A program made the position numbers and the translations under genes. The notes beneath the pieces are model-generated. The model did no database searches. It saw only the letters and a program-made list of their open reading frames with translations, and was not told the origin of the DNA. Of a stretch of 64,000 nucleotides of DNA, positions 15,377 through 63,230 are shown in pieces (positions within the stretch are counted from its first letter, which is position 1; each line of letters begins with the position of its first letter). Source of the DNA: Shigella phage SGF2; sequence record MN148435; one strand, given 5' to 3'.

Positions 15377-18300
15377 ATGGCTAACATTAAACCGTGGGAA
15401 GAAGCTTCCAAAGCTCCTGCGTATCTGAATGCCTCTCCGGAGCAACAAGCTCAAATGAGAGAACAATATAAGGCAGCAGGTGGCTCTATTCCTGAGGAAC
15501 AACCAGTAGCACAACCACAACAAGAAGAACGTGGTGCTATAGGTGAGTTTGCTCAAGGTGTGTCAAATGCTCTTCAATCTGGTGGTGCAAATATTGCAGC
15601 TAGTGCTGCTAAAGGTATTGGTGGTTTAGTTGAGATTGGTGAGAATCTAGCTGGAGCACAAACTAGTTATGGTAAGCGTATACAAGAGAACTCTCAGAAC
15701 CTTCTGAAAGAACGTATGGATAAGATTGAGGATGGGATTGGTAAAACTGTCGGTCAGTATGCTGGTGTTGCTGGTGATATCGGTTTGACAGTTGCTAACC
15801 CATTGGCTGCTGCTGCTATCATCGCAGGTCGTGAGACAGGTCGTGCATATGCAGACCAAACCCCTGAAGAGGGAGAAGATAAGTCTATTCTAGATGCAGC
15901 CTTAGTTGGTGGTGCTAACTATGCGGCTCAGAGAATCCTTCCGGGTGCTGTCGGTACAGCTGAATCCACACTTGGACGTATTGGTCAGAACGTTGCTAGT
16001 AACGCAGTGGCTGGTGCTAAAGGTGGTGCTCTTGTGGGTGCTGCTGAAGCTCAGAATAAGCACGGAGATGACACAACCTTTGCTAATGTATTAGAAGGTG
16101 CTATCGAAGAAGGTGCTATGGGTGCTGCATTTGGTGGTGCAGTTGGTGGGGTTCATGGTTTGATTAGCCGTCCGGGTTCTGCTGTCTTCAAGAATACTCC
16201 AGAGTATGCGAAGACTGATATTGCTGCTGATGATGAACTAATTCGTAGTGCTAAGAACATTGATGAACTGAAAGAAGCTTACTCTAAAGCTGAAACTGCT
16301 AACGCTGCTTCTGCTCTGAATCTTCTGGATGAGAATGGATTCCGTATTACAGATGCTGTTGCTGTGGATTCTCCTGCCGCTCAGCGTATTCTTAATACAG
16401 ACCAAGCCCGTGCTGAGAAAGCTGCTTCTGTTCAGAAAGAACATTCTAACATTCCGGGCCTTAACCCTTTGGCTTCTCCTGCTAAAGTTCGTGGTAAAGC
16501 ATTCGCTGATAATGAGCACAACCAGAAGCAAGCTGTCGCTATGAAAGACGCAATGGCTGATTACACAAAGGATAACACTAAAGCTCTTACAGATGTTCTG
16601 GATAATCTTGATCGTGAGTTAGTCTCTCTCCGAGCTTCTGGTGACTTTACTGGCAGTCCGATTGATATTAAGAATCGCACACAAGCTGACCGTGATTTCA
16701 TTGATGCTTACAAGACTTTCTATAATGAAGCAAATCGATTCAAAGCTCGTGATGGTGAAGACTTTAACAACTTCGTAGAGAAAGCTACTGAACTACAGAA
16801 GATGGCTGATAATGTTTCTCCAGAGATGAAACAAGCTATTGGTGGGTTGAAGAAACTGAAAGGTATGCCTGAAGGTTTTAATCCTATTCAAGATGCTTAT
16901 ACTCTGAACAATACAGCTAAGTTCATGAGCAACCAAGACCGTGGTTGGACTTCCCTGACTGATGATGGCTTCCGTGAGGCTTCTTCTCCTAGTCTGGTTA
17001 TGAATACACTTGGTGCTGCTAAGTATGCTCTGAATCGCTTCTCTTCTCAGCGTGCTCGCTCTCAACGTGTTAAACAACAAGAATCCAACAGTGAAGCTAT
17101 CCGCTCTCTAGCTCGTGGTGATTTGGAAGTTGCTCGTGCTAAATCTACTGCTGATGAAGCTCGTGCTAAAATGGAAGAAGAACCAGTTGTTGATGACATT
17201 AAATTTAAGACGCAAAATGACGTGGAAACCGAACCGGTTCGGGAGCCTTCTTCTAGTACTGTGACGGAAGAAAATCTTCCTTCTTCTGCTCCTCAAGAAA
17301 CTCCTCTTACAGCTCGAGATTTAGTTGCGCAAAGACGCGCTATCCGTCAGGCTGAACAGCGTCGCGCTGAAGAAGAGGCATTGGCTGCTCAAGAAGCTCC
17401 GGTCGAACAAACTCCACAGGCTGAACCTCTCCCTGCTCGTAACCCTCTAGAGGAGCGTCGTGCAATGGAACAGCAACGTGCTCAAGAAGAGGCCGCACAG
17501 GCTCCAGAACCAACCGTAGAGGAACCAACAGTCAAAGCTGAGCCATTACCTGCCCGTGCTCCTAAAGCTCCTAAGGAAGCTGTACAGGACGTTAAACCGG
17601 CAAGTGGTGTAGAACGTTTAGCTGCTATGTCCAGTGCTGCTCGTCAGGCTACTAAAGATCGTGCAGAACGTTTTGCTCGTTCTCTGTATTCCAAGGCTGC
17701 TAAGGCTAAAGCTACTGCTGAAAACTTCTTGGCTTACAAGGGTGATCCTAAAGAGTTGATGCGTCGTATTCGTCAGGAAGATAATGCTATCAACACTGAA
17801 CGTCATGAAGAGATGGCTCGTAATCAGCTAGCTTCTCAGCAAGGTATTGCTACTGCTAAGAACAACACTGTACGAACTAATTTTGCTGAATGGGTTAAGG
17901 AACGTGGTCTGCCAGAAGACATTGCTACTAAGGCATTACGTGCTGAAGAAAAAGGTTTAGGTGGGAACGTTACTAACTTGGATAGTCTGAAACGTCGTGC
18001 TGAAAGATTGTATCAGAAGCAGCGTGAGGATGAGTTTGATAGGTTGTATCAACAAGCTCTAGAAGAGAACAAAGCTTTCGATAAGAAGGATGCTCCTAAA
18101 CTGGTTGACCAGAAGAAAGAGCTTCAGTCTGAGATTGATACTTTGATTGATTCAGAACCTTTACGTCCTGCTCAGAAAGATGCTATGCGTAAGCTGATGA
18201 ATGATTATGTAGATGGGAAGTTTAAATCTTCAGAGAAGGCTGGTAGGGAAGAGGCTTTGGAAGTGGGTCAGATGAAGGATATTTGGGATGGGTTTATTAA

Positions 18301-50643: not shown

Positions 50644-51006
50644 CTATTGGTTTTTAATCAACTCGATCGACTTACGGATATAAAGAATATCTCGGAAGTT
50701 TCGATAGTTGTTCATAAATTGGTGCTTCTGGAAAGTAGCTTCTTCCAGAGATTTCTTTGCTTCTGCGTAGTTTTTACGGGCAAGATGTACAACCCGCTCT
50801 GGTAACACATTTGCACGACGGATGATATACTTGTGAGCCTTCATGTTGCTTTGCTCACGAGCAATCTTACCTTTAGCAACTTTGATACCATTTGCAATCC
50901 AAGCAAGTTCTTGCTCAAGCTCATCGTTGGACATTCCACCGAGATTTGATGCAACCTTGTTCAGAGTTTCAATATTAACGTTGCCCTTAATGGGACGTGT
51001 ATTCAT
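50644..51006 (-). CDS. hypothetical helical protein
   Basis: 120-aa ORF. Confidence 0.35.
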   Translation of the reverse strand: MNTRPIKGNVNIETLNKVASNLGGMSNDELEQELAWIANGIKVAKGKIAREQSNMKAHKYIIRRANVLPERVVHLARKNYAEAKKSLEEATFQKHQFMNNYRNFRDILYIRKSIELIKNQ

Positions 51007-51007
51007 A

Positions 51008-51163
51008 CTTACTCCTGTTGTTTACACTCGTCAATAACCCACTGATAAGTGGATTGCCCAGAAAAGAAACACTGAATAAATCCAGATGTTCTCTGCGTTA
51101 CCAGTGCTAGTGCACAAATCACTACCGCTGCTGCTAGCAGTTTTAAATCTAATTTAGACATAT
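51008..51163 (-). CDS. small membrane protein (50 aa)
   Basis: ORF below cut-off MSKLDLKLLAAAVVICALALVTQ...; RBS GAGAGG; directly after terminator. Confidence 0.3.
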
Positions 51164-51180
51164 TTCCTCTCATTGAATTT

Positions 51181-51206
51181 AAAAAAGGACTCTCCGAAAA
51201 GAGTCA
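51181..51206 (-). terminator. rho-independent terminator (minus strand)
   Basis: minus-strand GACTCTT-TTCGG-AGAGTCC then TTTTTT. Confidence 0.55.
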
Positions 51207-51234
51207 AGCTTTAAATCCAAAAAGATATTACCCA

Positions 51235-51390
51235 ATATCTGTGGATAACCTGCTCTTAAAATATCTATCCGACGGATGTTTGAGGAACATTCCTCGCCCT
51301 AGCATCGGCCCCATACGGGAAATATATTAAGATTAGGTTAGTTGAGTCAGAATAACTCACATAGCCCTCAGAAGAAGGCTATAGATGTTA
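51235..51390. repeat. repeated non-coding element R1 (3' of small-protein family gene)
   Basis: shares GGATGTT.GAGGAACA...CCTAGC...CACATAGCCCTC..hairpin..GGCTATA...GTTAC blocks with element at 56290-56425. Confidence 0.4.
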
Positions 51391-51392
51391 CT

Positions 51393-51635
51393 CTACTTAT
51401 CCCCACCAAAGGCGAGGTAGGCATCTTTGATTTCAGTAACCTGTGAATCAGGTTTGAATGCAGACAGGTGTCCTGTGTTCAGGTTAACTGCGTTGGCAGG
51501 GATGATGCAACCCTCAACTTTAGTGTCAGGGATTCTCATGTAGTAACTTGAAAAGTGCTCAGCTGAGAAAACTTCCCCAATAGAGATATCACCAATCTTC
51601 GCTAGAACATCCTTAGCTGGTTTCCCTATTTTCAT
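51393..51635 (-). CDS. small paralogous-family protein (member A)
   Basis: 80 aa; family pattern IGDISIGEVF...YYMR...AVNLNTGHL. Confidence 0.45.
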   Translation of the reverse strand: MKIGKPAKDVLAKIGDISIGEVFSAEHFSSYYMRIPDTKVEGCIIPANAVNLNTGHLSAFKPDSQVTEIKDAYLAFGGDK

Positions 51636-51868
51636 TACTCACCTTTCTTAGCACGATCTTTGGCAGTTTTGCCAGTGCGGATACGATGGGAAACGTTAAC
51701 CAGAGTGCCACCATCAATTACAGTAACGCTCTTGTTTTTAGCCAGATCAAACACAGTCTTCTCTGTGCCACCCAAGCGAATTTGCTTAGGCTCACTGAAG
51801 GTTTGGGTTGATTTGGATTGGAACTGGAACGGTTGACGGATTGCATCGATTGCGCTTACTTTAGACAT
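51635..51868 (-). CDS. small basic hypothetical protein
   Basis: 77-aa ORF; not obviously a family member. Confidence 0.35.
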   Translation of the reverse strand: MSKVSAIDAIRQPFQFQSKSTQTFSEPKQIRLGGTEKTVFDLAKNKSVTVIDGGTLVNVSHRIRTGKTAKDRAKKGE

Positions 51869-52099
51869 AGGGGAAATTCCTTAAAAAGTTATGGCTGCGT
51901 AGAGGGAATTCCCTACGCAAATTGGGCCGCCCACAGAGAGGCGTCATAGTACTAAAAGGAGGAGAGAAGAGGGCTTATTTAGCTACCTTTTTCTGTCCGT
52001 TTACGAACCAGATAATTGAACCGTCAGGCTGTCGTTGACCGAAGCCTTTCATGTTGGTCATTTCTTCTGTAGAATCATTAAATGTGATCACTTGTTTTC

Positions 52100-52348
52100 C
52101 TATGGAGTTAAGATAATTTCAGCCTTACTAAACTTCTCACCAACAACCATATCTCCAGAGATAACACGCAGTTCTCCAGTGCCCAAATTAACAGCTCCAG
52201 CAGGTTGACAACCCCTGCTCTTAGCTGTCAGCATGTAAATCTTTTGAAGATGGCACTCTTGGAGAGTGAACACATCTGACATATTTAGATCTTTAACACG
52301 GAGGACTGTTTCCTCTTTGCTCTTAACTTTAATATGAATAGTGCCCAT
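52100..52348 (-). CDS. small paralogous-family protein (member C)
   Basis: LRVKDLNMSDVF...IYML...AVNLGTGEL. Confidence 0.45.
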   Translation of the reverse strand: MGTIHIKVKSKEETVLRVKDLNMSDVFTLQECHLQKIYMLTAKSRGCQPAGAVNLGTGELRVISGDMVVGEKFSKAEIILTP

Positions 52349-52350
52349 AA

Positions 52351-52596
52351 TTACTCCTGAATCACTGACATACGAATCATTTCTACCTGATCATCAAGAC
52401 CTTTAACAGATAGTACACCTGTGGAAAGGTTTACCACAGGAACCCAGCCACTGGCTATACGGATATTACCAGAAGCATTTTCAACCCTCATATAATATTG
52501 AGGAGAGGCACTTCCGTGCTGTACCACAAAGGGGTTTCCGGGAATGATCGTTTCCAACCGTACCGTATTATCCTTTTTCTTTGGGATGATTTTCAT
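52351..52596 (-). CDS. small paralogous-family protein (member D)
   Basis: LETIIPGNPF...YYMRV...VVNLSTGVL. Confidence 0.45.
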   Translation of the reverse strand: MKIIPKKKDNTVRLETIIPGNPFVVQHGSASPQYYMRVENASGNIRIASGWVPVVNLSTGVLSVKGLDDQVEMIRMSVIQE

Positions 52597-52847
52597 TTAG
52601 AACCCTTAATAACGTTAGCTTCAACTTTAACAGGGATAACAGGAATACCCTCGACCGGACCACTCAGATTACCATCTTCCAGCCTGACACACACTACTCG
52701 ATCTCGTGCAACTTCCACCCAATTAGTAGATGCATCAGTGCAGACCATGTGTATTGGTCCATTCTCCTCTAAACGAAATGTATCACCCTTCTTCAGAGTA
52801 TGGAGTTTCACAGTCTTGGTAGTTCTATTTAATTCGTTAACTTTCAT
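52593..52847 (-). CDS. small paralogous-family protein (member E)
   Basis: LHTLKKGDTF...VRLEDGNLSG. Confidence 0.4.
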   Translation of the reverse strand: MKVNELNRTTKTVKLHTLKKGDTFRLEENGPIHMVCTDASTNWVEVARDRVVCVRLEDGNLSGPVEGIPVIPVKVEANVIKGSK

Positions 52848-52855
52848 ATTGATTC

Positions 52856-53167
52856 CTATTTAAGTTTGAGGCTAATGTTAAGGTGCATACATGCCCTGTT
52901 CTGTACAGCAGCATAACTTCTACCGAGCATGTCAGCCATTCTCTGAATAGACATGAACCCAGCATTACGGATAAGGAACTGATCTTCTTCTTTAGACCAC
53001 TTAACTCGGATTACAGCTCTAGAGATACCGAACTTAGTGCAAGCTGTATTAACTGCATTCTCCGTTACATTCATAATCTGAGCAACCTCTTGAACCGAGT
53101 ACTCTTTGATTAGTCTCCGAAGATTTTCAATCTGCATCGGAGTCCATATAGTTCTTCGTGCTTTCAT
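52856..53167 (-). CDS. DNA-binding protein with two tandem HTH (SANT/Myb-like) repeats
   Basis: internal repeats WTPMQIENLRRLIKEYSVQEVAQIMNVTENAV / WSKEEDQFLIRNAGFMSIQRMADMLGRSYAAV. Confidence 0.4.
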   Translation of the reverse strand: MKARRTIWTPMQIENLRRLIKEYSVQEVAQIMNVTENAVNTACTKFGISRAVIRVKWSKEEDQFLIRNAGFMSIQRMADMLGRSYAAVQNRACMHLNISLKLK

Positions 53168-53474
53168 ACATCCTCCAATTAAACATTTATATAAGACTTG
53201 CTTAGATAAAGATTCAATAAAATAGGGGGAGGGGACGAATCCTCCCTTATCCTATTAGTTAATATTGCATGTAAGATCTAACAATCGGTTGCCTTTGTAG
53301 GAATAAGCGTAAAGCCAATCCAGCACTAAACTCCCGCCCCCCTTAGTGGGCTGGGTTATTAAAGGGTAACGCCCTTATGGGCTAGTTACGTGAATGTTAG
53401 TTTGATAGGAGATCTGAAGTCCTATCTCAAAGGACTCTCGTAAGAATCCTTCACGATATTACTTATCCAGCTCC

Positions 53475-53696
53475 TTAGTAGACCAAACCTATAGCCTTTG
53501 CATCAGGCTGAGGGACTACTTTTGCACTAGGACGATAGCCATCCACTGAACCATTCCAAAGGTTGACACAGGTAATATACCCATCGTTCAAGTAGTCTGT
53601 TTTAATCCAGAAGTGTTTATCATGACCAAAAATACTTCCATTTGGAAGGGTGGACAGTTCAACAGTTTTAAGGGATTGTTTAGAATCTAATTTCAT
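53475..53696 (-). CDS. small paralogous-family protein (member F)
   Basis: LSTLPNGSIF...FWIKTDY...CVNLWNGSV. Confidence 0.45.
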   Translation of the reverse strand: MKLDSKQSLKTVELSTLPNGSIFGHDKHFWIKTDYLNDGYITCVNLWNGSVDGYRPSAKVVPQPDAKAIGLVY

Positions 53697-53705
53697 ATAA
53701 GTTCC

Positions 53706-53903
53706 TTAATACACCAAGCCATGTAAGAGAAACACTCTCTTAGTTAACTCTACTTTAGCTCTGTAATAAGCCTTAGAACCTAACAGTCGGCGTTTAACAA
53801 AGAACTTAATGTCATTGCTAACATCTTGTATTAAACGCTCCTGTACAGCTTCTGAGGAGCCATTAATCGAATCAATTAACACCTTTGTAGATGTGTAATT
53901 CAT
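53706..53903 (-). CDS. hypothetical protein
   Basis: start MNYTSTK 1 nt after lipoprotein stop. Confidence 0.3.
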   Translation of the reverse strand: MNYTSTKVLIDSINGSSEAVQERLIQDVSNDIKFFVKRRLLGSKAYYRAKVELTKRVFLLHGLVY

Positions 53904-53904
53904 A

Positions 53905-54204
53905 TCACCACTCTTTACCGGTTGTAATCGTAGAGCCACCACACCACAACGCTGTATCAATCACAACATTGTCTGGCGTAGACTTCTCTTCGTTGATAGA
54001 AGGGTTAGCATTAGAGCAGGTTGCTCCGTTCCAGCGCATATCAATCTCACCAGAAGGAACCTTCTCACCTTTATGCCAGCGAGATACACAAATACCATCC
54101 ACTGCTACTGCACACCATCCATCAGGACGGCTCTGTACGCAGCCTGTAAGGGCCACACAGACAAGGAAGATACAGATTAAGGATATTACACCACCCCAAC
54201 TCAT
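53905..54204 (-). CDS. Cys-rich lipoprotein (superinfection-exclusion candidate)
   Basis: signal peptide MSWGGVISLICIFLVCVALTGC with lipobox LTGC; 8 further Cys. Confidence 0.5.
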   Translation of the reverse strand: MSWGGVISLICIFLVCVALTGCVQSRPDGWCAVAVDGICVSRWHKGEKVPSGEIDMRWNGATCSNANPSINEEKSTPDNVVIDTALWCGGSTITTGKEW

Positions 54205-54223
54205 AACTATCTCCTATTAGATT

Positions 54224-54299
54224 TGGTGCACCCTACAGGACTCGAACCTGTAACCAACGACTTAGAAGGTCGCTGCTCTGTCCATTGAGCTAAGGGTGC
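54224..54299 (-). tRNA. tRNA-Arg (anticodon UCU), CCA encoded
   Basis: minus-strand GCACCCTTAGCTCAATGGACAGAGCAGCGACCTTCTAAGTCGTTGGTTACAGGTTCGAGTCCTGTAGGGTGCACCA folds as cloverleaf: 7-bp acceptor, D-arm GCTC/GAGC, anticodon loop CTTCTAA, T-loop TTCGAGT. Confidence 0.85.
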
Positions 54300-54308
54300 T
54301 AGATTTGT

Positions 54309-54518
54309 TTAACTAAAGATACGAATGGCTACATCGTGACCGATATGACCGGGAACTTTATGCTGTTCTATTTTCAAACAGTGTTTACAGATACGAGATA
54401 CACGAGATTCTTTTCTCTCGACCGGAGTGTCTTTAGCGTGGGTGATATGTAGGTTCTCAGTGATCACCCACTCGTGTTTACATCCAGAATCTTCGGGCTT
54501 TTTCTTACGAAAGAACAT
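54309..54518 (-). CDS. small zinc-finger protein, paralogue 1 of 3
   Basis: start MFFRKKKPEDSGCKHEW...RICKHCL. Confidence 0.4.
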   Translation of the reverse strand: MFFRKKKPEDSGCKHEWVITENLHITHAKDTPVERKESRVSRICKHCLKIEQHKVPGHIGHDVAIRIFS

Positions 54519-54526
54519 AACACCCC

Positions 54527-54691
54527 TTAGATCAGATCTGTTTTCTTGTGCAGACCACACACTTTACAGCGAGAGTAGATACGCAACCCTTGTCGCTCTC
54601 TGTCAGTAAGTTTATTTGTGATCGTCAGTTCATAAGTATGAAGATCTTCCCACTCATGGAAATGAAAGAAGCGTTTGAACCATTTGATCAT
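54527..54691 (-). CDS. small zinc-finger protein, paralogue 2 of 3 (54 aa)
   Basis: ORF below cut-off MIKWFKRFFHFHEW...RCKVCG. Confidence 0.4.
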   Translation of the reverse strand: MIKWFKRFFHFHEWEDLHTYELTITNKLTDRERQGLRIYSRCKVCGLHKKTDLI

Positions 54692-54700
54692 AATGATTCC

Positions 54701-54862
54701 TTAGATTACATCACGATGACTAACATCACCACACACCTTACACTGAATAACGTAACGTGTGCCCTTGTCATTATTCCCATCTGAATCTGTATAGACCAGA
54801 GGGCGAGTATTAATAATCTTCCAATCATGACAATGAAAGACACGCTTTAGCCACTTGAACAT
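54701..54862 (-). CDS. small zinc-finger protein, paralogue 3 of 3
   Basis: start MFKWLKRVFHCHDW...QCKVCGD (internal Met of track ORF). Confidence 0.4.
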   Translation of the reverse strand: MFKWLKRVFHCHDWKIINTRPLVYTDSDGNNDKGTRYVIQCKVCGDVSHRDVI

Positions 54863-54869
54863 ATTAACC

Positions 54870-55121
54870 TCAAGCACAAGCAGGGAGAGTGATGATTTTA
54901 TACTGACCTTCAAACTCTCCAAACAAACCCAAGAATGTAGGACTGTAAGTACCAGTACAAACAAACTCATCAAACAATTCGTTATAGCTAGGCTTGATCT
55001 TCCAAGCCCATACATAACCCATTTTGTCAATTGCAATGTAACGAGAGTTCAGAGGAACAGTCATCATCACATCATCAACTTCAATCACTTTAGTGATTGG
55101 TGCAGCTTGGAAGTTTTTCAT
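54870..55121 (-). CDS. hypothetical protein
   Basis: 83-aa ORF. Confidence 0.3.
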   Translation of the reverse strand: MKNFQAAPITKVIEVDDVMMTVPLNSRYIAIDKMGYVWAWKIKPSYNELFDEFVCTGTYSPTFLGLFGEFEGQYKIITLPACA

Positions 55122-55303
55122 ACTTTACCTTTGATGAAAATATCATTACCACAGACACAGCATGAACGAACAACAGTAGCGCCACGCTGAACGATACGAA
55201 CCTCTTCTTTAACCAGATTAACACGAGCACCACAGCAAGGAGAGTTAACATAAGAGTAACCAGCTTGTGTATTCTTGATTGTTTGCTTAGACATTTGATT
55301 CAA
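55118..55303 (-). CDS. small zinc-ribbon protein
   Basis: CCGAR...CCVCG. Confidence 0.3.
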   Translation of the reverse strand: MNQMSKQTIKNTQAGYSYVNSPCCGARVNLVKEEVRIVQRGATVVRSCCVCGNDIFIKGKV

Positions 55304-55643
55304 GATCTCTCAGTTGTTTAGCCAATTGTTCGCACTCGTTGATGCAGAACTCTTCTGTTCTTGGAACCCCATTAGGGTTGAACCATGTCTTATCACCTGC
55401 ATGGGCACAATCAAATCCGACTGTATTTAAACCACCCATTTCTTCGAGAGAATCCTGCCACGTAACACCGCCATGGACGTTGACATAACAAACCTCTTCC
55501 TCGTCCCCATTATATCCGGTGAAGTTTTTACTGCTCAGAGTATCTGGCAACTCCACATACCCACATAAGTGTGAGTAGTTCATGTGCATAATCACAGCAC
55601 GAAGACCTGATTTAGTTTCCCAATCTTTAACTATGCGTCTCAT
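55287..55643 (-). CDS. hypothetical protein
   Basis: start MRRIVKDW with AGAGGTG RBS. Confidence 0.35.
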   Translation of the reverse strand: MRRIVKDWETKSGLRAVIMHMNYSHLCGYVELPDTLSSKNFTGYNGDEEEVCYVNVHGGVTWQDSLEEMGGLNTVGFDCAHAGDKTWFNPNGVPRTEEFCINECEQLAKQLRDLESNV

Positions 55644-55694
55644 ATAAGCACCTCTTGTTAGTTTAAGTAAGAGCTGTCCCTTAATTAAAACAAC

Positions 55695-55718
55695 AAAGGC
55701 CACCCGAAGGCAGCCTTT
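55695..55718 (-). terminator. hairpin terminator (possibly bidirectional)
   Basis: AAAGGC..CCCGAAGG..GCCTTT hairpin flanked by T-rich tracts on both strands. Confidence 0.35.
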
Positions 55719-55721
55719 CTT

Positions 55722-55931
55722 TTATTGACTCACGCCACGAATCAGATGATTCTGTAGCGTTTCGTCTTCTGCATTATAAAGGAATGCGAACATCAATTCC
55801 TTAGCCACATCTCTTGAGCAATTAAGACACTTAGAGATTTGCGTTAGTTGCATGTTGCGATCAGTGTGTTCCATCAAGGCAATGCGAATGATCTCTCGCA
55901 TACCTATTACATGGGTTGTTTTAACCGGCAT
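55722..55931 (-). CDS. hypothetical protein
   Basis: start MPVKTTHVIG...; small 46-aa ORF lies upstream. Confidence 0.3.
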   Translation of the reverse strand: MPVKTTHVIGMREIIRIALMEHTDRNMQLTQISKCLNCSRDVAKELMFAFLYNAEDETLQNHLIRGVSQ

Positions 55932-56289
55932 AGGTCCAATTACCTTGCTTATTACGGATGGCTGACATTGCATGAACCCAGAAGCCTTCCAGTTTCAGAG
56001 CACCGTTAGCTACTGCATCCATACGTTCAGGGCGGTTCATACGTTTGGTTGATACTTTCATACCTATCTCTCTTTGTTAGTGGAGGCATTATTGCCAGTT
56101 GATATAAGGGATAGCCCTAGTCAGGAGGCTAACTCTGACCGCGTACTCATTGCCGACCTTCTCTGCCTAAGAGTTCAGGTTCTAGAGCTATCTCTTATTC
56201 CAACTGGTGAAGACTCCCTACCCCTAGGAAGTCTCCTGAATCCCAAACCAATATGTACCCCTACATATCAGAAAGTCTTTCGAAAATTA

Positions 56290-56425
56290 ACAGGTTTTAG
56301 TCTAGCACCGGATGTTCGAGCAAGCTCTCCCTAGCGGTGTGGCATATGCCTGATTAATAAGTTAATGAGGAACACCCTCACATAGCCCTCTGATAAACAC
56401 AAGGGCTATAAGTCGGTGTTACTTT
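56290..56425. repeat. repeated non-coding element R2 (3' of small-protein family gene)
   Basis: GGATGTTCGAGC...CCTAGCGGTG...TGAGGAACACCCTCACATAGCCCT-loop-AGGGCTAT...GTTAC; related to R1. Confidence 0.4.
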
Positions 56426-56637
56426 TGAGATAAACACAGATCAGGACGTGGCATAACAGTGGTTGATAGGCCGAAGACTTCAACAGAACCACTATTCAAG
56501 TCAGCAGCTTTACACAAACCGTCAGGAGTTTTATCTTCTAGCATCAGCCAGAAACGTCTATCGTAAGAGAAAACATCACCGCCCTTAACGTCTTCTGCAT
56601 TTGCATATTTAGGATAATCGACTACTTTAATTTCCAT
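56419..56637 (-). CDS. small paralogous-family protein (member G)
   Basis: VKGGDVF...FWLMLED...ADLNSGSV. Confidence 0.45.
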   Translation of the reverse strand: MEIKVVDYPKYANAEDVKGGDVFSYDRRFWLMLEDKTPDGLCKAADLNSGSVEVFGLSTTVMPRPDLCLSQK

Positions 56638-56641
56638 CTAC

Positions 56642-56896
56642 TTACCCTTTGTTGGTGATTACAACATCATGAAGTACAATAACCTTGCTTTTTGAGCTGA
56701 GCTTAAGGACTTGCTTGTTTGTTAGACTGAGGACGACACAACCACCATCAGAGGGTTTAGTCTCCTCAACCTGCGATCTAAACAGATGAACAACCATGTA
56801 GAAATCTGCTCGTGTTTCCTTGATTTGGAATACATCTCCGAGTTTAAGATCACCAACACACAAAGACGGTTCATTTACTTCAAGATTAATCTTCAT
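56642..56896 (-). CDS. small paralogous-family protein (member H)
   Basis: LKLGDVF...FYMVV...VLSLTNKQV. Confidence 0.45.
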   Translation of the reverse strand: MKINLEVNEPSLCVGDLKLGDVFQIKETRADFYMVVHLFRSQVEETKPSDGGCVVLSLTNKQVLKLSSKSKVIVLHDVVITNKG

Positions 56897-57122
56897 CTTT
56901 AGCCTCTATGTTAGTTATGTGGAGATCACTGCGTACTTGGCAAACTTCATCCCGTTTAAAAGGCATGAGCTTTCCAGTTACCACATCAACACAGTTGACA
57001 TAATTGTCTGCGTACAATGTGTCGGTTCTAATGTAAAGGGACTCTTTACGCTCAAACAGAACTCCCGGCTTCATGTTATTTAAGCGAAGCATGGTATAAT
57101 TAGGTTTAATATTAACTTTCAC
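56886..57122 (-). CDS. small paralogous-family protein (member I)
   Basis: MKPGVLF...YIRTD...CVDVVTGKL. Confidence 0.45.
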   Translation of the reverse strand: MKVNIKPNYTMLRLNNMKPGVLFERKESLYIRTDTLYADNYVNCVDVVTGKLMPFKRDEVCQVRSDLHITNIEAKDED

Positions 57123-57373
57123 TAATCCACCTTATTGGTAAGACGAACGTTATCAATCAACTGGACGTTGGTGTCACTTTTCAGTACGGTAACTTTATCC
57201 GATACTAGATCTAATACAACTCTCCAACTACCCATTAAACTGTACTGTCTAATACTACTCGCATCTAATTTGACAACCAGATAAATCTTCTTTTTAGGTG
57301 GGATAGTTTCAAAAACATCACCAACCTTCAGTTCCTTCAGTTGTTTAACCACAGGCACTGTATTGATATCATG
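57122..57373 (-). CDS. small paralogous-family protein (member J), probable GTG start
   Basis: LKELKVGDVF...YLVVKLD...VVLDLVSDKV; GGAG RBS before in-frame GTG; longer track ORF overlaps upstream gene. Confidence 0.35.
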   Translation of the reverse strand, partial: HDINTVPVVKQLKELKVGDVFETIPPKKKIYLVVKLDASSIRQYSLMGSWRVVLDLVSDKVTVLKSDTNVQLIDNVRLTNKVD

Positions 57374-57665
57374 CTTCACTATTAATCTCCTGCTGCTTAG
57401 CAATAGCCACTCGCAAGTCTTCATTAGCACGAGCAAGGCGCAATACTTCATGGTTGAGATTCTGAAGACGCTTGTTTCTGTCCTCAACTTGCATAATAAG
57501 ATCGTTAAGAGTTGCTTTAACTTTCTCATTATACATCTCATCCACTCGGACTAGAGATTTGTACATTCTCTCCCAGCTTGCTGCTTTGTTTCTTAGAACA
57601 ATAAATCCTAGAACGCTGACAGTTAAACAGCTTACAAAAAGGAATTTATATACTTCTAAAGTCAT
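57369..57665 (-). CDS. membrane-anchored coiled-coil protein
   Basis: N-terminal TMD FLFVSCLTVSVLGFIVL then heptad-like helix. Confidence 0.35.
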   Translation of the reverse strand: MTLEVYKFLFVSCLTVSVLGFIVLRNKAASWERMYKSLVRVDEMYNEKVKATLNDLIMQVEDRNKRLQNLNHEVLRLARANEDLRVAIAKQQEINSEA

Positions 57666-57864
57666 ATTATTTACCCTTTATCAGAGATTAAAAGTAATAT
57701 TATTTAAGTAAGTTATATTTAGTAAACTTATTTTCTAAGAAATTTTCAAAGGGTCTATATACAGAGCATTACCCATAGTCCCAGAATACTACCATCTTTT
57801 TCAATAAATTTACTAAGTGGTTGGTTTATAAAGGAATTTAGTTTGTCAAATCTGGCACTAGTGA

Positions 57865-58254
57865 TTACTCCATAGAGCTATTATCAAACACTAAATCACC
57901 ACAATACATAGGATTGGCATACCATTTTGGCACCCCTTCGCTCTTACTCTGAAAGTAAGTCCCACTGTACAGCGGAACATAATTCTTCTTAAGGGCACGT
58001 TTAGCAAGTCGCTCGCTTTCTCCAATGGCTTGCTTAGTCATCGGATTTTTATCACGAATCAGCTTTACATAACGTTTATAAGGTTTCTCCTGTTTTAATA
58101 GTACCGGAATCCACTCAAACTGGTTCTTTTGTCTTATCACCTGTTCAGCGGTCAGTTTTCGTTGAGCCATTCTATTTATCACGGTATCCGCAACTAAAGC
58201 CTTACATGCGGTTGGCTGGTTCCCTGCCTCATAATAAATAGTCAATGTCAACAT
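57865..58254 (-). CDS. SleB-like cell-wall hydrolase domain protein
   Basis: TIYYEAGNQPTACKALVADTVINRM...KNQFEW resembles SleB/Hydrolase_2 core. Confidence 0.5.
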   Translation of the reverse strand: MLTLTIYYEAGNQPTACKALVADTVINRMAQRKLTAEQVIRQKNQFEWIPVLLKQEKPYKRYVKLIRDKNPMTKQAIGESERLAKRALKKNYVPLYSGTYFQSKSEGVPKWYANPMYCGDLVFDNSSME

Positions 58255-58386
58255 TAGCTGGGCCGTTGTTATCAGAACTTGCTACCTCCTGTTTTGTTGT
58301 TTCCATAAACACCCTCGAAAAGATGCTTATAGAAACACCCCTCCCTTTCGGAATAGGTGTTATCTTACTATTTGTAACTTACACCA

Positions 58387-58686
58387 TTACTTTTTTACAT
58401 ATATTGCCAGTGGCGACTTGGTGTTTAGTGGAGTGAAGTTCATGTCCAGTTTATACCCCATCTTGAAAACCATTTCCAACAACATATCGACGGAGAACTT
58501 TGAAAGCTGTCCATTCATAAGGTTACTAATCCTTGGCTGGCTAACACCTAGCTTCTCTGCGGCAACACACTGCGACCAACCCTGATCACGAATTAACTTC
58601 GTAAGAATGATGATCAGCTTGGACTTCAATGAAAGCACGTTGACCTCTACAGGGTCTGTACTTATTAGCTCGAATGGGTTTTTCAT
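58387..58686 (-). CDS. HTH XRE-family DNA-binding protein (antitoxin/repressor-like)
   Basis: DQGWSQCVAAEKLGVSQPRISNLMNGQLSKFSVDMLLEM. Confidence 0.6.
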   Translation of the reverse strand: MKNPFELISTDPVEVNVLSLKSKLIIILTKLIRDQGWSQCVAAEKLGVSQPRISNLMNGQLSKFSVDMLLEMVFKMGYKLDMNFTPLNTKSPLAIYVKK

Positions 58687-58709
58687 AGAAAATTCCTATA
58701 CAATAGACA

Positions 58710-58736
58710 TAAAAAGCCCCAGCCGTAGCCGGGGCA
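58710..58736 (-). terminator. rho-independent terminator (minus strand)
   Basis: minus-strand GCCCCGGC-TAC-GGCTGGGGC then TTTTTATG. Confidence 0.45.
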
Positions 58737-58797
58737 AACCTGAAAGCAACACATGACCGTTGCTATAAATACACTCGCAAATGCACTTACAGCAACG

Positions 58798-58821
58798 CAA
58801 AAAGCCGCTCAAAGGCGGCTA
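58798..58821 (-). terminator. second hairpin terminator (minus strand)
   Basis: minus-strand AGCCGCC-TTTGA-GCGGCT then TTTTTGCG. Confidence 0.4.
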
Positions 58822-58900
58822 TGCGGAAGCTTCAAATGGGGAGAGGGCACGACGCTACAGAAAGAGCGTCATAGTACTAAAAGAGGGGGCTATATTCCTA

Positions 58901-59344
58901 CTACTTAACCCTTGCCTCTTTGATGGGGTCAATGTATTTTTCAACGCCCCACTTGTGTTTACTATCTGCGTAGAAAACATCAGGTGCACACTGGCTTGTC
59001 TTAGGGAAAGCCTGCGGGTCTTTCGTGCTACCTTTAAACTTCTGTTTACCACGGGTGCGACCATTACAGAGGATTTCTAACTTCTTCTCTTCTTCTGTTT
59101 TAGCTCCCCCGCTCTGTAACAAAGAACGTTTATGATCGGCTAACAATAACGCATCAGCACGATGAACACGATGGCCTACACGTTTTGCCACACTGGAAGG
59201 AATATGGGATTCAGCCTCAGTTTTTGCAGCGCGACGTTTTAAACTGCGCTTGCTGACGTGATTGGTTGCCTTTGGCTTCTCTTTCTCCAGTTCAGAGATA
59301 GAAAAACAACGCCCGCCCTTCATGCTGATTTTAGATTTAGCCAC
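58901..59344 (-). CDS. basic hypothetical protein
   Basis: 147-aa Lys/Arg-rich ORF. Confidence 0.35.
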   Translation of the reverse strand: MAKSKISMKGGRCFSISELEKEKPKATNHVSKRSLKRRAAKTEAESHIPSSVAKRVGHRVHRADALLLADHKRSLLQSGGAKTEEEKKLEILCNGRTRGKQKFKGSTKDPQAFPKTSQCAPDVFYADSKHKWGVEKYIDPIKEARVK

Positions 59345-59413
59345 AATCTTATTCCTTTTAGTGATAAGTTATATCGGGCAAGCCCATCAAGGTGACAGGC
59401 TTGAACAAATAAC

Positions 59414-59623
59414 TTAATCAAGTAAACTAAACGATTTCCAACTGCGTAGCAGGATTGTACCGTCATCCATAGCTACGCATAACTTTAACAGTTTCTTGTT
59501 AGCACTACTCACCGTTGTAATTCGTCCAGTTGTACATTTACCTTTATTGCTGTAAAGATATACAACACGACGGCCTAACAAGCGGGAAGGTGCTTTCTTA
59601 AATTCTGAAATGTTAGTGATCAT
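59414..59623 (-). CDS. hypothetical protein
   Basis: 69 aa; ATGA-type coupling with upstream gene. Confidence 0.3.
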   Translation of the reverse strand: MITNISEFKKAPSRLLGRRVVYLYSNKGKCTTGRITTVSSANKKLLKLCVAMDDGTILLRSWKSFSLLD

Positions 59624-59844
59624 AATGCTTGATACCTTTGAATGTGTTCAATACGGGTGGATTGAGCAAATGACGCTTTAACAGCCATTTTCCTAACTTC
59701 TTCTTTACGCTGGTTAGTGTGTACAGTATCCCAATGTTTGTTATCACGTTGGCGCTGTAATATCTTACTACATTTGCGATGGTTTCCCGTGCTGCGATGT
59801 TTCTCACAAATAGGACACTTGCCAAAATTACTACTGAATATCAT
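59620..59844 (-). CDS. small basic zinc-binding protein
   Basis: GKCPICEKH...HRKC; preferred over overlapping alternative frame by coupling to neighbours. Confidence 0.3.
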   Translation of the reverse strand: MIFSSNFGKCPICEKHRSTGNHRKCSKILQRQRDNKHWDTVHTNQRKEEVRKMAVKASFAQSTRIEHIQRYQAL

Positions 59845-60068
59845 TTTCTCAATCCCAGCTTTCTTAAGATACGGCCTAACGTTGTTTCTTGCGTGATAAT
59901 ATAGCTGATTGCTTCACGTTCCAATGTTTCAATCTTCATTGGTGACGGATACCATTCACCGGTAATAACACATTTACATTCAACGCCATACTTTTTAGAT
60001 AGGCGGTAATGTTGACCGTTGACAAGATTCCTATAAATAGTGGTATGCGTAATTAACATGATCATCAC
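59841..60068 (-). CDS. hypothetical protein
   Basis: 75-aa ORF. Confidence 0.3.
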   Translation of the reverse strand: MMIMLITHTTIYRNLVNGQHYRLSKKYGVECKCVITGEWYPSPMKIETLEREAISYIITQETTLGRILRKLGLRK

Positions 60069-60111: not shown

Positions 60112-60148
60112 ATAAAAGAAAAGGCGCTACCCGTTAAGATAGCGCCTT
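60112..60148 (-). terminator. rho-independent terminator (minus strand)
   Basis: minus-strand AGGCGCTA-loop-TAGCGCCTT then TTCTTTTATC, after stop of 60171-61079. Confidence 0.45.
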
Positions 60149-61079: not shown

Positions 61080-62858
61080 CTTTCAATTGTAAGGGCACTA
61101 TGCCCCGCTCTCTATGAGCTTGTTTAAGTCACTATTAACTTATCTCTAACCACTCACTTTTTTAAGTAGTTACAGGTAAGCGAGGCGGTCTTATCAGGAG
61201 TTAACCTTGCCGCCTCCTTATCCGTGATGTTTCATCTGGTATCTTTAATTAGTCGCTATAAACGAAGCCGACCTGATAGCGATGATCAATCATCACAATA
61301 AGGCAGTGCGTCCGACTCTAATTAGTTACGTTTATTGTAACCGTCGGCAATATCGTCTACTTTGCTTTCGCTCTCGCCTATCCTTTTGTATCAACTCTCA
61401 ATCACTAGCCATCGCCCACAACGGGATGCTATTGTGAAAGAGTCATTGACCGTCTAATGTTCTGACGTTTTATATCTTTCGGCAAGTTTACTACATAAAC
61501 CGACTATGTACTTTCATCTTGTGATGAATCTCAAGCCGTTCACATCGTAAACGTTCACACTAAACCTTATTGTTAAATAGCAATTTGCCACTTTTTAACC
61601 GCTCCCCGCCGCCCTCAATTGGGCGTTAATTTGTCGGACTTGCCTACCCTGATTAACTTCTTTCACTGTAGCACCATGTTAGCGATGACCGCCGCTACCC
61701 TTAACCGTGGGCGATTAGCTTAAGTCTTTGCGTGTACTCAATGAATCCGTCTATCAGTGGTGACGTTTCCAGTAAGGGAATGTAAGGCTGTTTTCTCTGA
61801 TAGTTTAGAGAGTCTTACACCGTTTTATCTGGTATGCTTTCCGATGGTTATTATCATCAAGCATATTCAACCGATATAGGAGAACGTTTAAATTATTAAA
61901 GAGCGGTAAATCTATCAGTGTACTTTCTCACACTATGCAACTGTTAGCCGTTGTTACGCTTTTCACTGAAGCGATGATTTGCTTAGTGAGTGCTCATTAT
62001 GAATCATGTTGTTTTCGCTGTCAACCGCTTTTTAATCTTTTTCGTCGTTCCCGCTATTGGGAGGATATATCAATCAGCTTTATTTGATTGAAGATTAAGC
62101 GGTGAGGCTTAACTTATGACTCATATTGTTAAAGAGCGTTTAGCCTTTTAAAGTGTCTGCTAATCACTGTCACATTGAAGGCTTACTGATTCATTAACAG
62201 GACGCCTAACCCTGAACTACTCGCCGCACTATGTGCCACCTTTCCCGCGATACGTTGACTTGGGAACTAGTTAACGTTGTTTTGTTAACTTGTGGTTAGT
62301 ATGGACTACCTTAACCACGTTTGCAACTCTTTTTTATCATCTTCTTTTAATTCCTTTCCCTTATCTCGCTTGAATCTTTGCGAAAGGGCAAGATGATAAG
62401 TTTTTAAAGAGCGGAGATATTTTAAGTCATCGCTGACTATGCTCACTATATATCAGGCTTTTTCTGGTGTCAATACTCTTTTTAAGTATTTTCACTTTCT
62501 AGCCTGATTTTTAAAGAGCGGGGCAAGTTTCCTTGCCTTGTATGTTTTTCATCGTACCCGATGAATTGAAGTATACGCCAACCAATGTGTAATGCAATAG
62601 GGTAAAGCAAATTATTTTAAACTTTTTCATAGTGGGATAGGTAAAAGAACGCGCACGCGTGATACATCATAGAAAATAGCTTGTAAAGCATTATTTAACG
62701 GCCTGTAACGCATCACAACGAGCTAAAGGAGGGTAAGGAATACAATCACCTTAGAAATGAGAAAAGCCTCACTAGGAGGCTTACAGGAAGGATTTAAAGC
62801 AACAGATACAGTAGGACCATAGGCATGACTACGGCACAATATAGGAGAAAGATTAAGC
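61080..62858. promoter_or_regulatory. 1.8-kb ORF-free repeat-bearing region (candidate early promoter cluster / origin / terminal region)
   Basis: no ORF of 60 aa or more in six frames; four copies of TTAAAGAGCG at 61896, 62129, 62404, 62511; duplicated TTT(C/T)ATCTGGTAT(C/G)CTTT at ~61226 and ~61820; CACTATA-like elements. Confidence 0.4.
62753..62782 (-). terminator. rho-independent terminator (minus strand)
   Basis: minus-strand AAGCCTCC-TAGT-GAGGCTT then TTTCTCATTTC, after 62859-63230. Confidence 0.45.
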
Positions 62859-63230
62859 CTATGGATTTACACATTGACCTAAACCGGATTCTACTTCATT
62901 CATAGACTCGTCAAAGAGCGTCAACGACGAGCGCATCAAGTGATCGACCGTGATTTGTTTACCAGTGGTTTCATTCACTAGCTGAATAGTTTTATCGTAT
63001 GATTGTACATGATCGAAATCATTTACATGTAAAATAATAACTTTAGGTGACTTTTTACCAGTTTCATAGTTTTCTATCAAATAGGTGCACTGTAAACCGT
63101 CAACCGTAGCAGGGGAGAACGTTGCAGCCTTTACACTACCCATAGCCGATAGCAGGACACCTAACAGGAGAACAACCAGAAAGAAGCCTACAACCGTTTT
63201 AACGACGAATTTAATAAACCACATAGCCAA
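62859..63230 (-). CDS. membrane-anchored protein
   Basis: N-terminal TMD FVVKTVVGFFLVVLLLGVLLSAMG. Confidence 0.35.
   Translation of the reverse strand: MAMWFIKFVVKTVVGFFLVVLLLGVLLSAMGSVKAATFSPATVDGLQCTYLIENYETGKKSPKVIILHVNDFDHVQSYDKTIQLVNETTGKQITVDHLMRSSLTLFDESMNEVESGLGQCVNP

Follow-up and report, generated by a model that had tools for sequence, protein, structure and literature searches.

A conserved RNA-type element behind two early genes of phiEco32-like phages, a candidate signal for termination control

How does host RNA polymerase pass through a leftward cluster of more than 25 kb of early genes that is dotted with terminator hairpins? This question is raised by a repeated sequence in Shigella phage SGF2 (sequence record MN148435), of which a stretch of 64,000 nucleotides (nt), hereafter the window, was analyzed. 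The phage phiEco32 is a model for the takeover of host transcription by a phage, through its sigma factor gp36 and its sigma-70 inhibitor gp79, and the subfamily to which it belongs, Gordonclarkvirinae, consists of virulent podoviruses. The window comes from a phiEco32-like coliphage (genus Kuravirus, subfamily Gordonclarkvirinae): about 100 phiEco32-like phages match its 50-60 kb region at 80-95% identity, and its gene order is that of phiEco32. An earlier sequence-only reading of the window had noticed an identical 18-nt sequence (18-mer) in two distant intergenic regions. We found that this 18-mer is the 5' half of a larger element of RNA type whose 3' end resembles boxA at one of the two sites, both of which that reading had missed. 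The element falls in no described family, and its best reading, going by sequence, is a cis-acting RNA signal for termination control. The authors of the study of phage 7-11 state that, for these phages, an antitermination strategy 'remains to be defined' (PMC8948821).

The sequence GCGTCATAGTACTAAAAG occurs exactly on the plus strand at 51941-51958 and at 58866-58883. The identity of the two copies, as first reported, holds and is far beyond chance: in shuffled sequence 0.01 matches with at most three mismatches were expected, and three matches were reached in 0 of 100 shuffles. Within the early region (45-64 kb), the 18-mer is the sole perfect repeat of at least 18 nt. Because the genes here are all on the minus strand, the element is to be read as CTTTTAGTACTATGACGC, at 51941..51958 (copy 1, site 1) and 58866..58883 (copy 2, site 2), both on the minus strand. 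A covariance model of the whole element recovered just two sites in the window, also on the minus strand, at 51919..51973 (site 1, 58.9 bits, E 2e-14) and 58843..58894 (site 2, 49.1 bits, E 1.2e-11). The next best hit scored 11.5 bits, which is the noise level; this is also the score of a third 18-mer match, with three mismatches, inside a large structural coding gene (17250-17267).

Both copies follow closely on the stop codon of an early gene. Site 1 stands behind a small open reading frame (ORF) of 38 amino acids (aa), the homologue of phiEco32 gene 94 (51975..52091, minus strand), and copy 1 starts 16 nt past its stop codon. Copy 1 had been placed directly after the gene at 52100-52348, but this conserved 38-codon ORF intervenes. 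Site 2 stands behind the gene for a 147-aa basic protein, the homologue of phiEco32 gene 120 (58901..59344, minus strand, phrog_11641), and copy 2 lies about 20 nt past its stop. The distance from stop codon to element is about 16-30 nt at both sites, and the similarity between the copies reaches upstream through a C/U-rich tract to the stop codon. At site 1 this tract is the G-poor GCCCTCTTCTCTCCTC (51959..51974, minus strand), between the small-ORF stop codon and the 18-mer, and it is kept in Kuravirus and Suseptimavirus; the tract upstream of copy 2, ATAGCCCCCT (58884..58893, minus strand), is shorter. The longer context claimed for the two copies is real but requires a 1-nt insertion or deletion, ACAGAGAG-GCGTC versus ACAGAAAGAGCGTC. 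Downstream of copy 1 lie, in order, a short hairpin, a hairpin of 10 base pairs (bp) and the gene 93 homologue. Downstream of copy 2 a short hairpin is followed by two strong intrinsic terminators. The initial description of copy 1 as adjoining a hairpin is therefore correct, and a terminator scan confirmed that copy 2 sits between a gene stop and two terminators.

We compared both sites from 13 phages of Kuravirus, Suseptimavirus and Nieuwekanaalvirus; the subfamily has no other genera. The element was found at the same two syntenic sites in 13 of 13 phages and always after a stop codon, one site 2 being degraded. In the complete phiEco32 genome the motif occurs at the same two places and nowhere else; there and in the other phages compared from the three genera it is thus present, not absent, at the homologous positions. 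The core TACT(A/G)TGACG was identical in 25 of 26 instances across the three genera, and loops and flanks vary. In the window, the core TACTATGACG lies on the minus strand at 51942..51951 (site 1) and 58867..58876 (site 2). It is the same in all site 1 instances, and the sole degraded instance is site 2 of phage E20-1. The 5' part of the motif is variable (TTTTAG, TTTAAC, TTTAGC, GTCAAC, TTCAAC or GCAAC). The palindrome TAGTACTA, pointed out in the sequence-only reading, is therefore a feature of Kuravirus only, and is replaced by AACTACTA or AGCTACTA in Suseptimavirus and Nieuwekanaalvirus. Its lack of conservation argues against a symmetric dimer site centred on it, and a palindromic site for a dimeric protein was rejected. 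Palindromes of the GGGAATTCCC type were also considered as a second repeated motif and were not enriched.

Across the genomes the covariance model detected two copies each, at 46-61 bits, with the next best at 12 bits. It found no element in Salmonella phage 7-11 or Cronobacter phage GAP52, and none in the large myoviruses with a gene 93 homologue. When the IMG/VR database was scanned with a loose pattern, about 120 matches came up, mostly chance or coding, and the full signature was seen in Gordonclarkvirinae contigs only.

In several lineages homology breaks at the edges of the element, on either side. In myPSH2311 the match starts at the first base of the motif, and in PH444 it stops just past the hairpin. 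Suseptimavirus has a 414-nt gene after site 1, and the large WFI101126/Paul group carries an extra gene before site 2, with a stop codon that is the TAG within the motif. EcoN5 has a third copy of the element, adjoining site 1, through a segmental duplication; this is a tandem duplication of about 1.5 kb (L153, 620-2480) that comprises four genes and site 1 and has its junction inside the 3' end of the gene 94 homologue. In E20-1 (L029, 6990-7060) the core of site 2 is mutated at two positions (CCACTACGACGC), the upstream stop codon is lost, so that the gene 120 ORF is annotated as 543 nt, and the stem of the following terminator, T1, is broken (GGGGC). This damage is either a natural partial knock-out or a sequencing error; we count the joint damage of core, stop codon and terminator stem in favor of a role in termination control. 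Judged by these comparisons, a discrete unit appears to be under strong selection. Of what had been proposed for the 18-mer (a regulator binding site, a promoter element or a processing site), a function beyond chance is well supported, with the motif kept at both homologous positions in three genera as flanks and neighbours change. A promoter is unlikely, and a processing site or an RNA site for protein binding is possible.

The core runs into a short hairpin, of which the core end forms the 5' arm. At site 1 (51926..51945, minus strand) the hairpin is GACGCC, loop TCTCTGTG, GGCGGC, with a predicted -7.4 kcal/mol, and at site 2 (58851..58870, minus strand) it is GACGCT, loop CTTTCTGT, AGCGTC, with a predicted -11.5 kcal/mol. 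Across phages it takes the forms GACGCT(C)-loop-(G)AGCGTC at site 2 and GACGCC-loop-GGCG(G/T/C)C at site 1, where WFI101126 has a perfect 6-bp version (GGCGTC). The loops are pyrimidine-rich, variable in sequence and 5-10 nt long, and complementarity kept across such a range of loop lengths is a misfit to a DNA operator of fixed spacing. The sixth pair of the stem is C:G at site 1, U:A at site 2 and U:G in NJ01, Bas88 and TH42. In Bas88 and TH42 the U:G pair is given by an A-to-G change, with a predicted fold of about -12.9 kcal/mol for the sense strand versus -7.4 kcal/mol for the antisense strand. These stem changes (C:G to U:A, U:A to U:G) fit a sense-strand RNA. By its sequence the element is strongly constrained, orientation-specific and of RNA type, and each of its two copies occupies the 3' untranslated stretch behind an early ORF.

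Neither copy in the window was called by the terminator scan, and there is no T-run behind either hairpin; the other Kuravirus versions are alike. At KBNP1711 site 1 and at both Suseptimavirus sites a T-run follows the hairpin (GACGCT TCTTTT AGCGTC GTTTTTG and GACGCTC TTCTT GAGCGTC TTTTGT). The second, 10-bp hairpin after site 1, TGCGTAGGGAATTCCCTCTACGCA (51896..51919, minus strand), has no T-run directly behind it and so does not count as a canonical terminator; it is present in Kuravirus and KBNP1711 and replaced in Suseptimavirus. A search of Rfam over 51000-60000 at E<=5 returned only a tRNA-Arg (transfer RNA, tRNA) and a sub-threshold Plastid-ycf2 on the opposite strand of that tRNA locus. 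The element (51-60 kb) was therefore not assigned to a known RNA family, and the leader described below was likewise blank.

Strong early sigma-70 promoters were called by a promoter scan at 62473-62445 and 62024-61996 (minus strand), and these correspond to the early promoters of phage SU10 (SU10 paper, Table S2). From these promoters at 62.0-62.5 kb, early transcription would run leftward through genes 124 to 120, then through site 2 and its terminators, and would reach site 1 about 7 kb farther on. Both sites lie downstream of the promoters on the same strand, at about 3 kb (site 2) and about 10 kb (site 1), with terminators ahead, which is the position of a nut-type site. The first intrinsic terminator after site 2, T1 (58797..58820, minus strand), reads AGCCGCC TTTGAG CGGCT TTTTT and lies about 30 nt past the site 2 hairpin; its stem follows the pattern GCCGCC..GCGGCTTTTT across genera. 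The second, T2 (58710..58735, minus strand), reads GCCCCGGC TACG GCTGGGGC TTTTT. Site 2 stands just upstream of T1 in all three genera, where the element and T1 are both kept and the surrounding sequence is replaced.

Several further features of this unit were recorded. One of its genes (59620-59844) encodes a small basic immediate-early protein of 74 aa with an isoelectric point of 10.3, whose CxxC...H...C pattern suggests a zinc ribbon. A strong terminator-like hairpin with a 12-bp stem and a T-run (60121-60148, minus strand) stands directly after the first early gene, the gene 124 homologue, and is a further barrier in the early unit upstream of site 2. The slot downstream of the site 2 terminators is a variable cassette: the window has a gene for a DNA-binding protein of the HTH_37 type there (58387-58686), and phiEco32 and SkaterBoy instead carry an 800-900 nt gene annotated 'tail protein'. 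Past T1 in SU7 (L010, about 7150-7250, minus strand), GGTTCAATCCC resembles a remnant of a tRNA T-arm and is followed by another terminator.

The layout of stop codon, C/U tract, box, short hairpin and terminator recalls lambda nutR, and we therefore aligned the lambda nut sites. Within the site 2 hairpin lies a boxA-like octamer, CGCTCTTT (58861..58868, minus strand). Site 2 ATGACGCTCTT is identical to GTGACGCTCTT of lambda nutL (GGTGACGCTCTTA) over 10 nt, covering boxA and the three preceding bases, and the phiEco32 copy is identical over 11 nt (shared stretch RTGACGCTCTT). Against the boxA consensus CGCTCTT(T)A, the boxA-like stretch of site 2 scores 7/8 to CGCTCTTA, the lambda boxA, and 8/9 to CGCTCTTTA. 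At site 1 the homologous place reads CGCCTCTC, and a score of 6/8 is reached only elsewhere, in the C/U tract; KBNP1711 site 2 scores 5/8. On the coding strand of the 64-kb window, all six occurrences of CGCTCTTT fall within the first 4 kb of the early unit; in shuffles the mean was 0.81 per strand and the maximum 3. boxA recruits NusB/NusE for rrn and lambda N antitermination and promotes Rho termination in some contexts (PMC12360218).

Four of these occurrences are canonical boxAs of the rrn type in the leader of the early promoters (61893..62520, minus strand): CGCTCTTTAAAAA at 62520 and 62413, CGCTCTTTAACAA at 62138 and CGCTCTTTAATAA at 61905. Their forms are CGCTCTTTAAAAA (twice), CGCTCTTTAACAATA and CGCTCTTTAATAATT, with the general form CGCTCTTTAA[A/C/T]AA. 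Two of them come about 30 and 90 nt after the two strong sigma-70 promoters, and some stand behind small hairpins. The same four are conserved across all three genera, in phiEco32 (L003, 33620-34274), SU7 (L155, 1840-2616) and KBNP1711 (L156, 1816-2615). One copy in SU7, behind a TTGACA-17-TAAGAT promoter and a hairpin, is identical at 18 of 18 positions to the boxA region of the E. coli rrnB leader, and the AAAAAT-type leader boxA matches the boxA of the rrnB spacer. No boxA cluster was found in 7-11 or GAP52, and no paper in the literature searched links boxA with phiEco32. The canonical boxAs in the leader imply that early transcription would use host Nus-factor antitermination.

The leader has other features of its own. 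The region of about 1.8 kb between the gene 125 and gene 124 homologues (61080-62858) has no coding-strand ORF of at least 50 aa. Within it are the promoters and boxAs as well as several hairpins and one degenerate boxA (TGCTATTTAACAAT, near 61581); such a long transcribed leader might encode a non-coding RNA. Just upstream of the boxA at 61905 is a hairpin (61925-61942, minus strand) with the sequence GTGTgagaaagtACAC, which is ACGTG..CACGT in KBNP1711 (L156, about 1835-1855) and GTGTG..CACAC in phiEco32. Such covariation is consistent with a boxB-like stem preceding boxA. Within a coding gene (62905-62935, minus strand, inside the ORF 62859-63230), one more TGACGCTCTTT is found in the loop of a hairpin CTCGTC..GACGAG. 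The phiEco32 counterpart is CTCATC..GATGAG, a two-sided change that keeps the pairing; GAC-to-GAT is synonymous and GTC-to-ATC conservative (Val to Ile).

Among the readings weighed, we tentatively favor, at less than even confidence, that the element of about 50 nt is a nut-like co-transcriptional RNA signal that modulates termination. Host RNA polymerase would start at the sigma-70 promoters near 62.0-62.5 kb and transcribe the early unit leftward. The nascent RNA would present, in order, the stop codon of the early ORF, the C/U-rich tract, the invariant single-stranded box UACU(A/G)UGA and the short GC hairpin. The end of the box supplies the 5' arm of this hairpin, the loop is rich in pyrimidines, and at site 2 the boxA core CGCUCUUU falls within the hairpin. 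We infer that a factor would bind the element as it emerges from the polymerase. Candidates are host NusB/NusE, by way of the boxA-like part, and an immediate-early protein of the phage, by way of the invariant box; the two might also act together. The response of the polymerase to downstream hairpins and terminators (T1 and T2 directly after site 2, others after site 1) would then be altered, with the outcome of either read-through or an enforced stop. As an internal nut-like site, the element might re-load or modulate the boxA/Nus antitermination already set at the early promoters.

A number of observations weigh against this proposal. The polymerase is probably already boxA-modified at the leader, which may make an internal site unnecessary. 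UACURUGA, where conservation is highest, is unlike every known nut, boxA, boxB and put sequence, and the boxA-like part is less conserved than the core. A boxA-like match arises by chance in shuffles of the element in 4% (at least 7/8) or 1% (exact CGCTCTT) of cases; at site 2 half of the boxA core is buried in the stem, and at site 1 CGCCUCUC is a boxA only with a 1-nt insertion. Covariation is modest, with 88.8% of cells paired, one covarying pair and a score that was reached by 29 of 500 shuffles. KBNP1711 site 2 retains the core but reads CGUUUCUC at the boxA-like part and has no hairpin, and the hairpins with a T-run, in Suseptimavirus and at KBNP1711 site 1, have the look of weak terminators. 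No N-like protein was found: among ten neighbouring early proteins, Pfam, PHROGs and NCBIfam gave no antiterminator family, and the neighbours had no informative match in Pfam, PHROG, NCBIfam or PDB. Because N proteins are poorly conserved, the missing family match is weak evidence. Four of the ten neighbouring early proteins are small and basic. The gp120 homologue was considered as an RNA-binding or antiterminator fold and rejected; it has no family or PDB match, and its AlphaFold model is uninformative (predicted local distance difference test, pLDDT, 57.6).

A bolder version of the nut-like reading, which we regard as unlikely, is that Gordonclarkvirinae early genes are under two-layer antitermination. 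The rrn-type boxAs of the leader, taken over from the host, would form one layer, and a phage-specific box, UACURUGA with its hairpin, at two fixed internal points the other. The reader of the internal box would be a small basic immediate-early protein whose gene lies between the promoters and site 2. Working as a lambda-N-like switch, the box would open the tandem terminators and set delayed-early genes apart from immediate-early ones.

The main rival is that the two sites yield sibling small RNAs (sRNAs), released by cleavage from the 3' ends of the messages for genes 120 and 94, with the invariant 10-12 nt as a shared seed and with the hairpin, U-rich linker and terminator as an Hfq-type scaffold. 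We consider this improbable, if the strongest of the alternatives. The pattern of conservation fits siblings, with an invariant single strand, a hairpin kept in structure with a free loop, a U-rich stretch and a terminator. In Suseptimavirus site 2 the seed, a 7-bp hairpin, UUUUGUCU, the T1 hairpin and U5 follow one another within about 58 nt; the sole variable core position is A/G, both able to pair with U, and the upstream C/U-rich tract is anti-Shine-Dalgarno-like. However, Kuravirus site 1 has no canonical terminator and hence no defined poly-U 3' end, the ribosome-binding site of the next gene in Suseptimavirus begins less than 20 nt from the site 1 hairpin, and the element has no promoter of its own. 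No complementary target was found on either strand of the window, to which the search was confined. Somewhat less probable again is a plain 3'-end module. It would be a weak intrinsic terminator or attenuator, a protective hairpin next to an endonuclease site (e.g. for RNase E), or both, and would set the ratio of upstream to downstream message and stabilize the upstream message. The element always stands behind a stop codon, the T-runs at KBNP1711 site 1 and both Suseptimavirus sites suit such a module, and the SU7 authors annotated a terminator over site 2. Yet terminators and stabilizer hairpins need no invariant 10 nt upstream, and the core has no obvious A/U-rich motif of the RNase E type. 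The Kuravirus hairpins, including both copies in the window, lack the T-run and were not called terminator-like, and KBNP1711 site 2 keeps the core with no hairpin at all.

A site acting at the DNA level seems doubtful to us. A phage DNA-binding protein might use it as an operator or roadblock, or it might be a factor-dependent promoter in which TACTAT/TACTGT serves as a -10 box of the TAnnnT form. An asymmetric invariant block of 10-12 bp would suit a monomeric DNA-binding domain, TACTRT retains three key -10 positions, and genes for helix-turn-helix (HTH) proteins are near, namely a D5-like regulator (52856-53167) and the HTH_37 protein mentioned above (58387-58686), with several in the early region. 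The HTH_37 gene beside site 2 is, however, not conserved, a different gene being present there in phiEco32. Neither site has a -35 box or a call in the sigma-70 scan, and the sequence 17 nt upstream of TACTAT is C/T-rich, unlike an UP element, and differs between the copies. A promoter is also unlikely because a start downstream of TACTAT as the -10 would leave out the 5' arm of the conserved hairpin. The spacing of the arms, 5 to 10 nt, and the U:G change favor RNA, and neither of the two sites, the only ones present, coincides with a known promoter. A gp36 promoter was rejected as well: the promoters of this phage sigma factor in phiEco32 (tAATGTAtA, 6-8 nt upstream of the start) have been mapped upstream of genes 6, 13, 26, 40, 58 and 68 and not upstream of genes 93 or 119. 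The match of TAGTACTAT to TAATGTATA is 3/9 and, aligned on the invariant core, that of TACTATGAC is 4/9. Neither site shows a switch in GC skew or AT skew, and a replication origin was dismissed.

Very improbable, in our view, is that the element has no regulatory role of its own and persists as junction sequence, providing microhomology for recombination at cassette borders in the manner of the T4 PeSL (promoter-early stem-loop) elements. The mosaic breakpoints at its edges in several lineages, the inserted genes that abut it and the third copy in EcoN5, which arose by segmental duplication next to site 1, all point this way. Such a role would nevertheless leave unexplained why 10 nt are kept to the base in genera whose adjacent coding sequence is only about 80% identical, and why the hairpin is maintained. 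The junction of the EcoN5 duplication is not at the motif, and recombination between the two direct copies would delete 7 kb of early genes.

Other candidates were tried and rejected. Mimicry of host rrn by the motif itself is not supported, since its rrnB matches are at chance level only. A mini-ORF starting at the ATG/GTG of the core is open in all instances examined, but it has 5 to 28 codons, its frame shifts through indels in T-runs, and it has no Shine-Dalgarno sequence. The C/U tract as an anti-Shine-Dalgarno sequence acting in cis on the next gene is predicted in the window (z-score -1.5) and is not kept in KBNP1711 or Suseptimavirus. The prophage sRNA svsR/co293 was dropped as a partner; Kuraviruses were unaffected in that study. 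The motif does not travel with gene 93, as upstream of the gp93 homologues in Vequintavirinae there are sigma-70 promoters and tRNA genes but the motif is missing.

The genes around site 1 were noted in their own right. The gene 93 protein (51635-51868, phrog_6662) has homologues with 50-64% identity in unrelated large myoviruses, Vequintavirinae, with Klebsiella, Salmonella, Cronobacter and Erwinia as hosts. There the homologues stand behind strong sigma-70 promoters among tRNA genes, and gene 93 is a widely exchanged small early gene. The 3' two-thirds of the 38-aa ORF (51975-52091, minus strand) are near-invariant across genera (KGFGQRQPDGSIIWFVNGQKK), and most of the changes there fall on third codon positions. 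In the 5' third of the ORF the window and phiEco32 differ completely.

The element is not described in the literature searched on phiEco32, SU10 and 7-11, a scope outside which Savalia 2008 and Pavlova 2012 fall, either of which may mention the element or the boxAs. It offers two precise, mutable 10-base targets for studying how host polymerase passes through the leftward early cluster. The leader boxAs suggest that these virulent phages borrow the host machinery for ribosomal-RNA antitermination, and they make the question of antitermination directly testable in this phage group. If the sibling sRNAs were real, a phage group with use in therapy would have a conserved regulatory RNA. On either reading the element is a compact portable part that could serve engineered phages or synthetic circuits.

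We compared the element with known systems. Like an intrinsic terminator it has a short GC-rich hairpin, with a T-run behind it in Suseptimavirus and KBNP1711, unlike the copies in the window; terminators need no conserved upstream 10-mer. With the gp36 promoters it shares being a short, conserved, low-copy intergenic motif of the same phage group, but the sequences are unrelated. T4-type PeSL elements reportedly serve as cassette borders (work of Arbiol et al. in 2010). They are likewise short, repeated intergenic stem-loop elements of the early region at the borders of variable cassettes, whereas our element has no early-promoter consensus and only two copies per genome, at fixed syntenic sites. 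CpxQ, SroC and OmrA/B exemplify Hfq-dependent sRNAs derived from 3' untranslated regions and families of sibling sRNAs. The element resembles these in its invariant single-stranded stretch, hairpin(s), U-rich linker and terminator, its place directly after a gene and its two paralogous copies. It differs in that Kuravirus site 1 has no poly-U end, and as an RNA species with Hfq binding and a target it is a candidate only.

Other parallels are found in antitermination. The E. coli rrn operons have leader signals boxB, boxA and boxC and a second, internal boxA in the 16S-23S spacer, which is like an internal element; the same phage genomes carry rrn-type leader boxAs, and the octamer of site 2 is the core of the phage's own leader boxA. 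Unlike rrn boxAs, the element has no AAnAA tail, its core is interrupted at site 1, and its matches to rrnB are at chance level. A 12-13-mer of the YGCTCTTTAACAA type shortly past a promoter is found among the leader copies at 61.9-62.5 kb but not in the element, which is 3-10 kb away. From the lambda nut sites the element differs in that UACURUGA has no lambda counterpart, site 1 has no proper boxA and no N homologue was found. The boxA-like stretch of the element is inside the hairpin, whereas the lambda boxA is 5' of it; lambda nut is close to its promoters, whereas the element is 3 kb and 10 kb away. The lambda boxB is a 5-bp hairpin 3' of boxA, with purine-rich pentaloops (GAAAA in nutR, GAAGA in nutL), and the pyrimidine-rich, variable loops of 5-10 nt in the element lack this feature. 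As in lambda nut, a conserved linear box and a short hairpin ahead of terminators would make up a short RNA signal, and the early operon that contains it is one that host polymerase transcribes. Lambda nutR lies after cro, and the element likewise lies just after the stop codon of an early gene; with lambda nutL, site 2 has in common the 10-11 nt stretch and the boxA core CGCTCTT within it.

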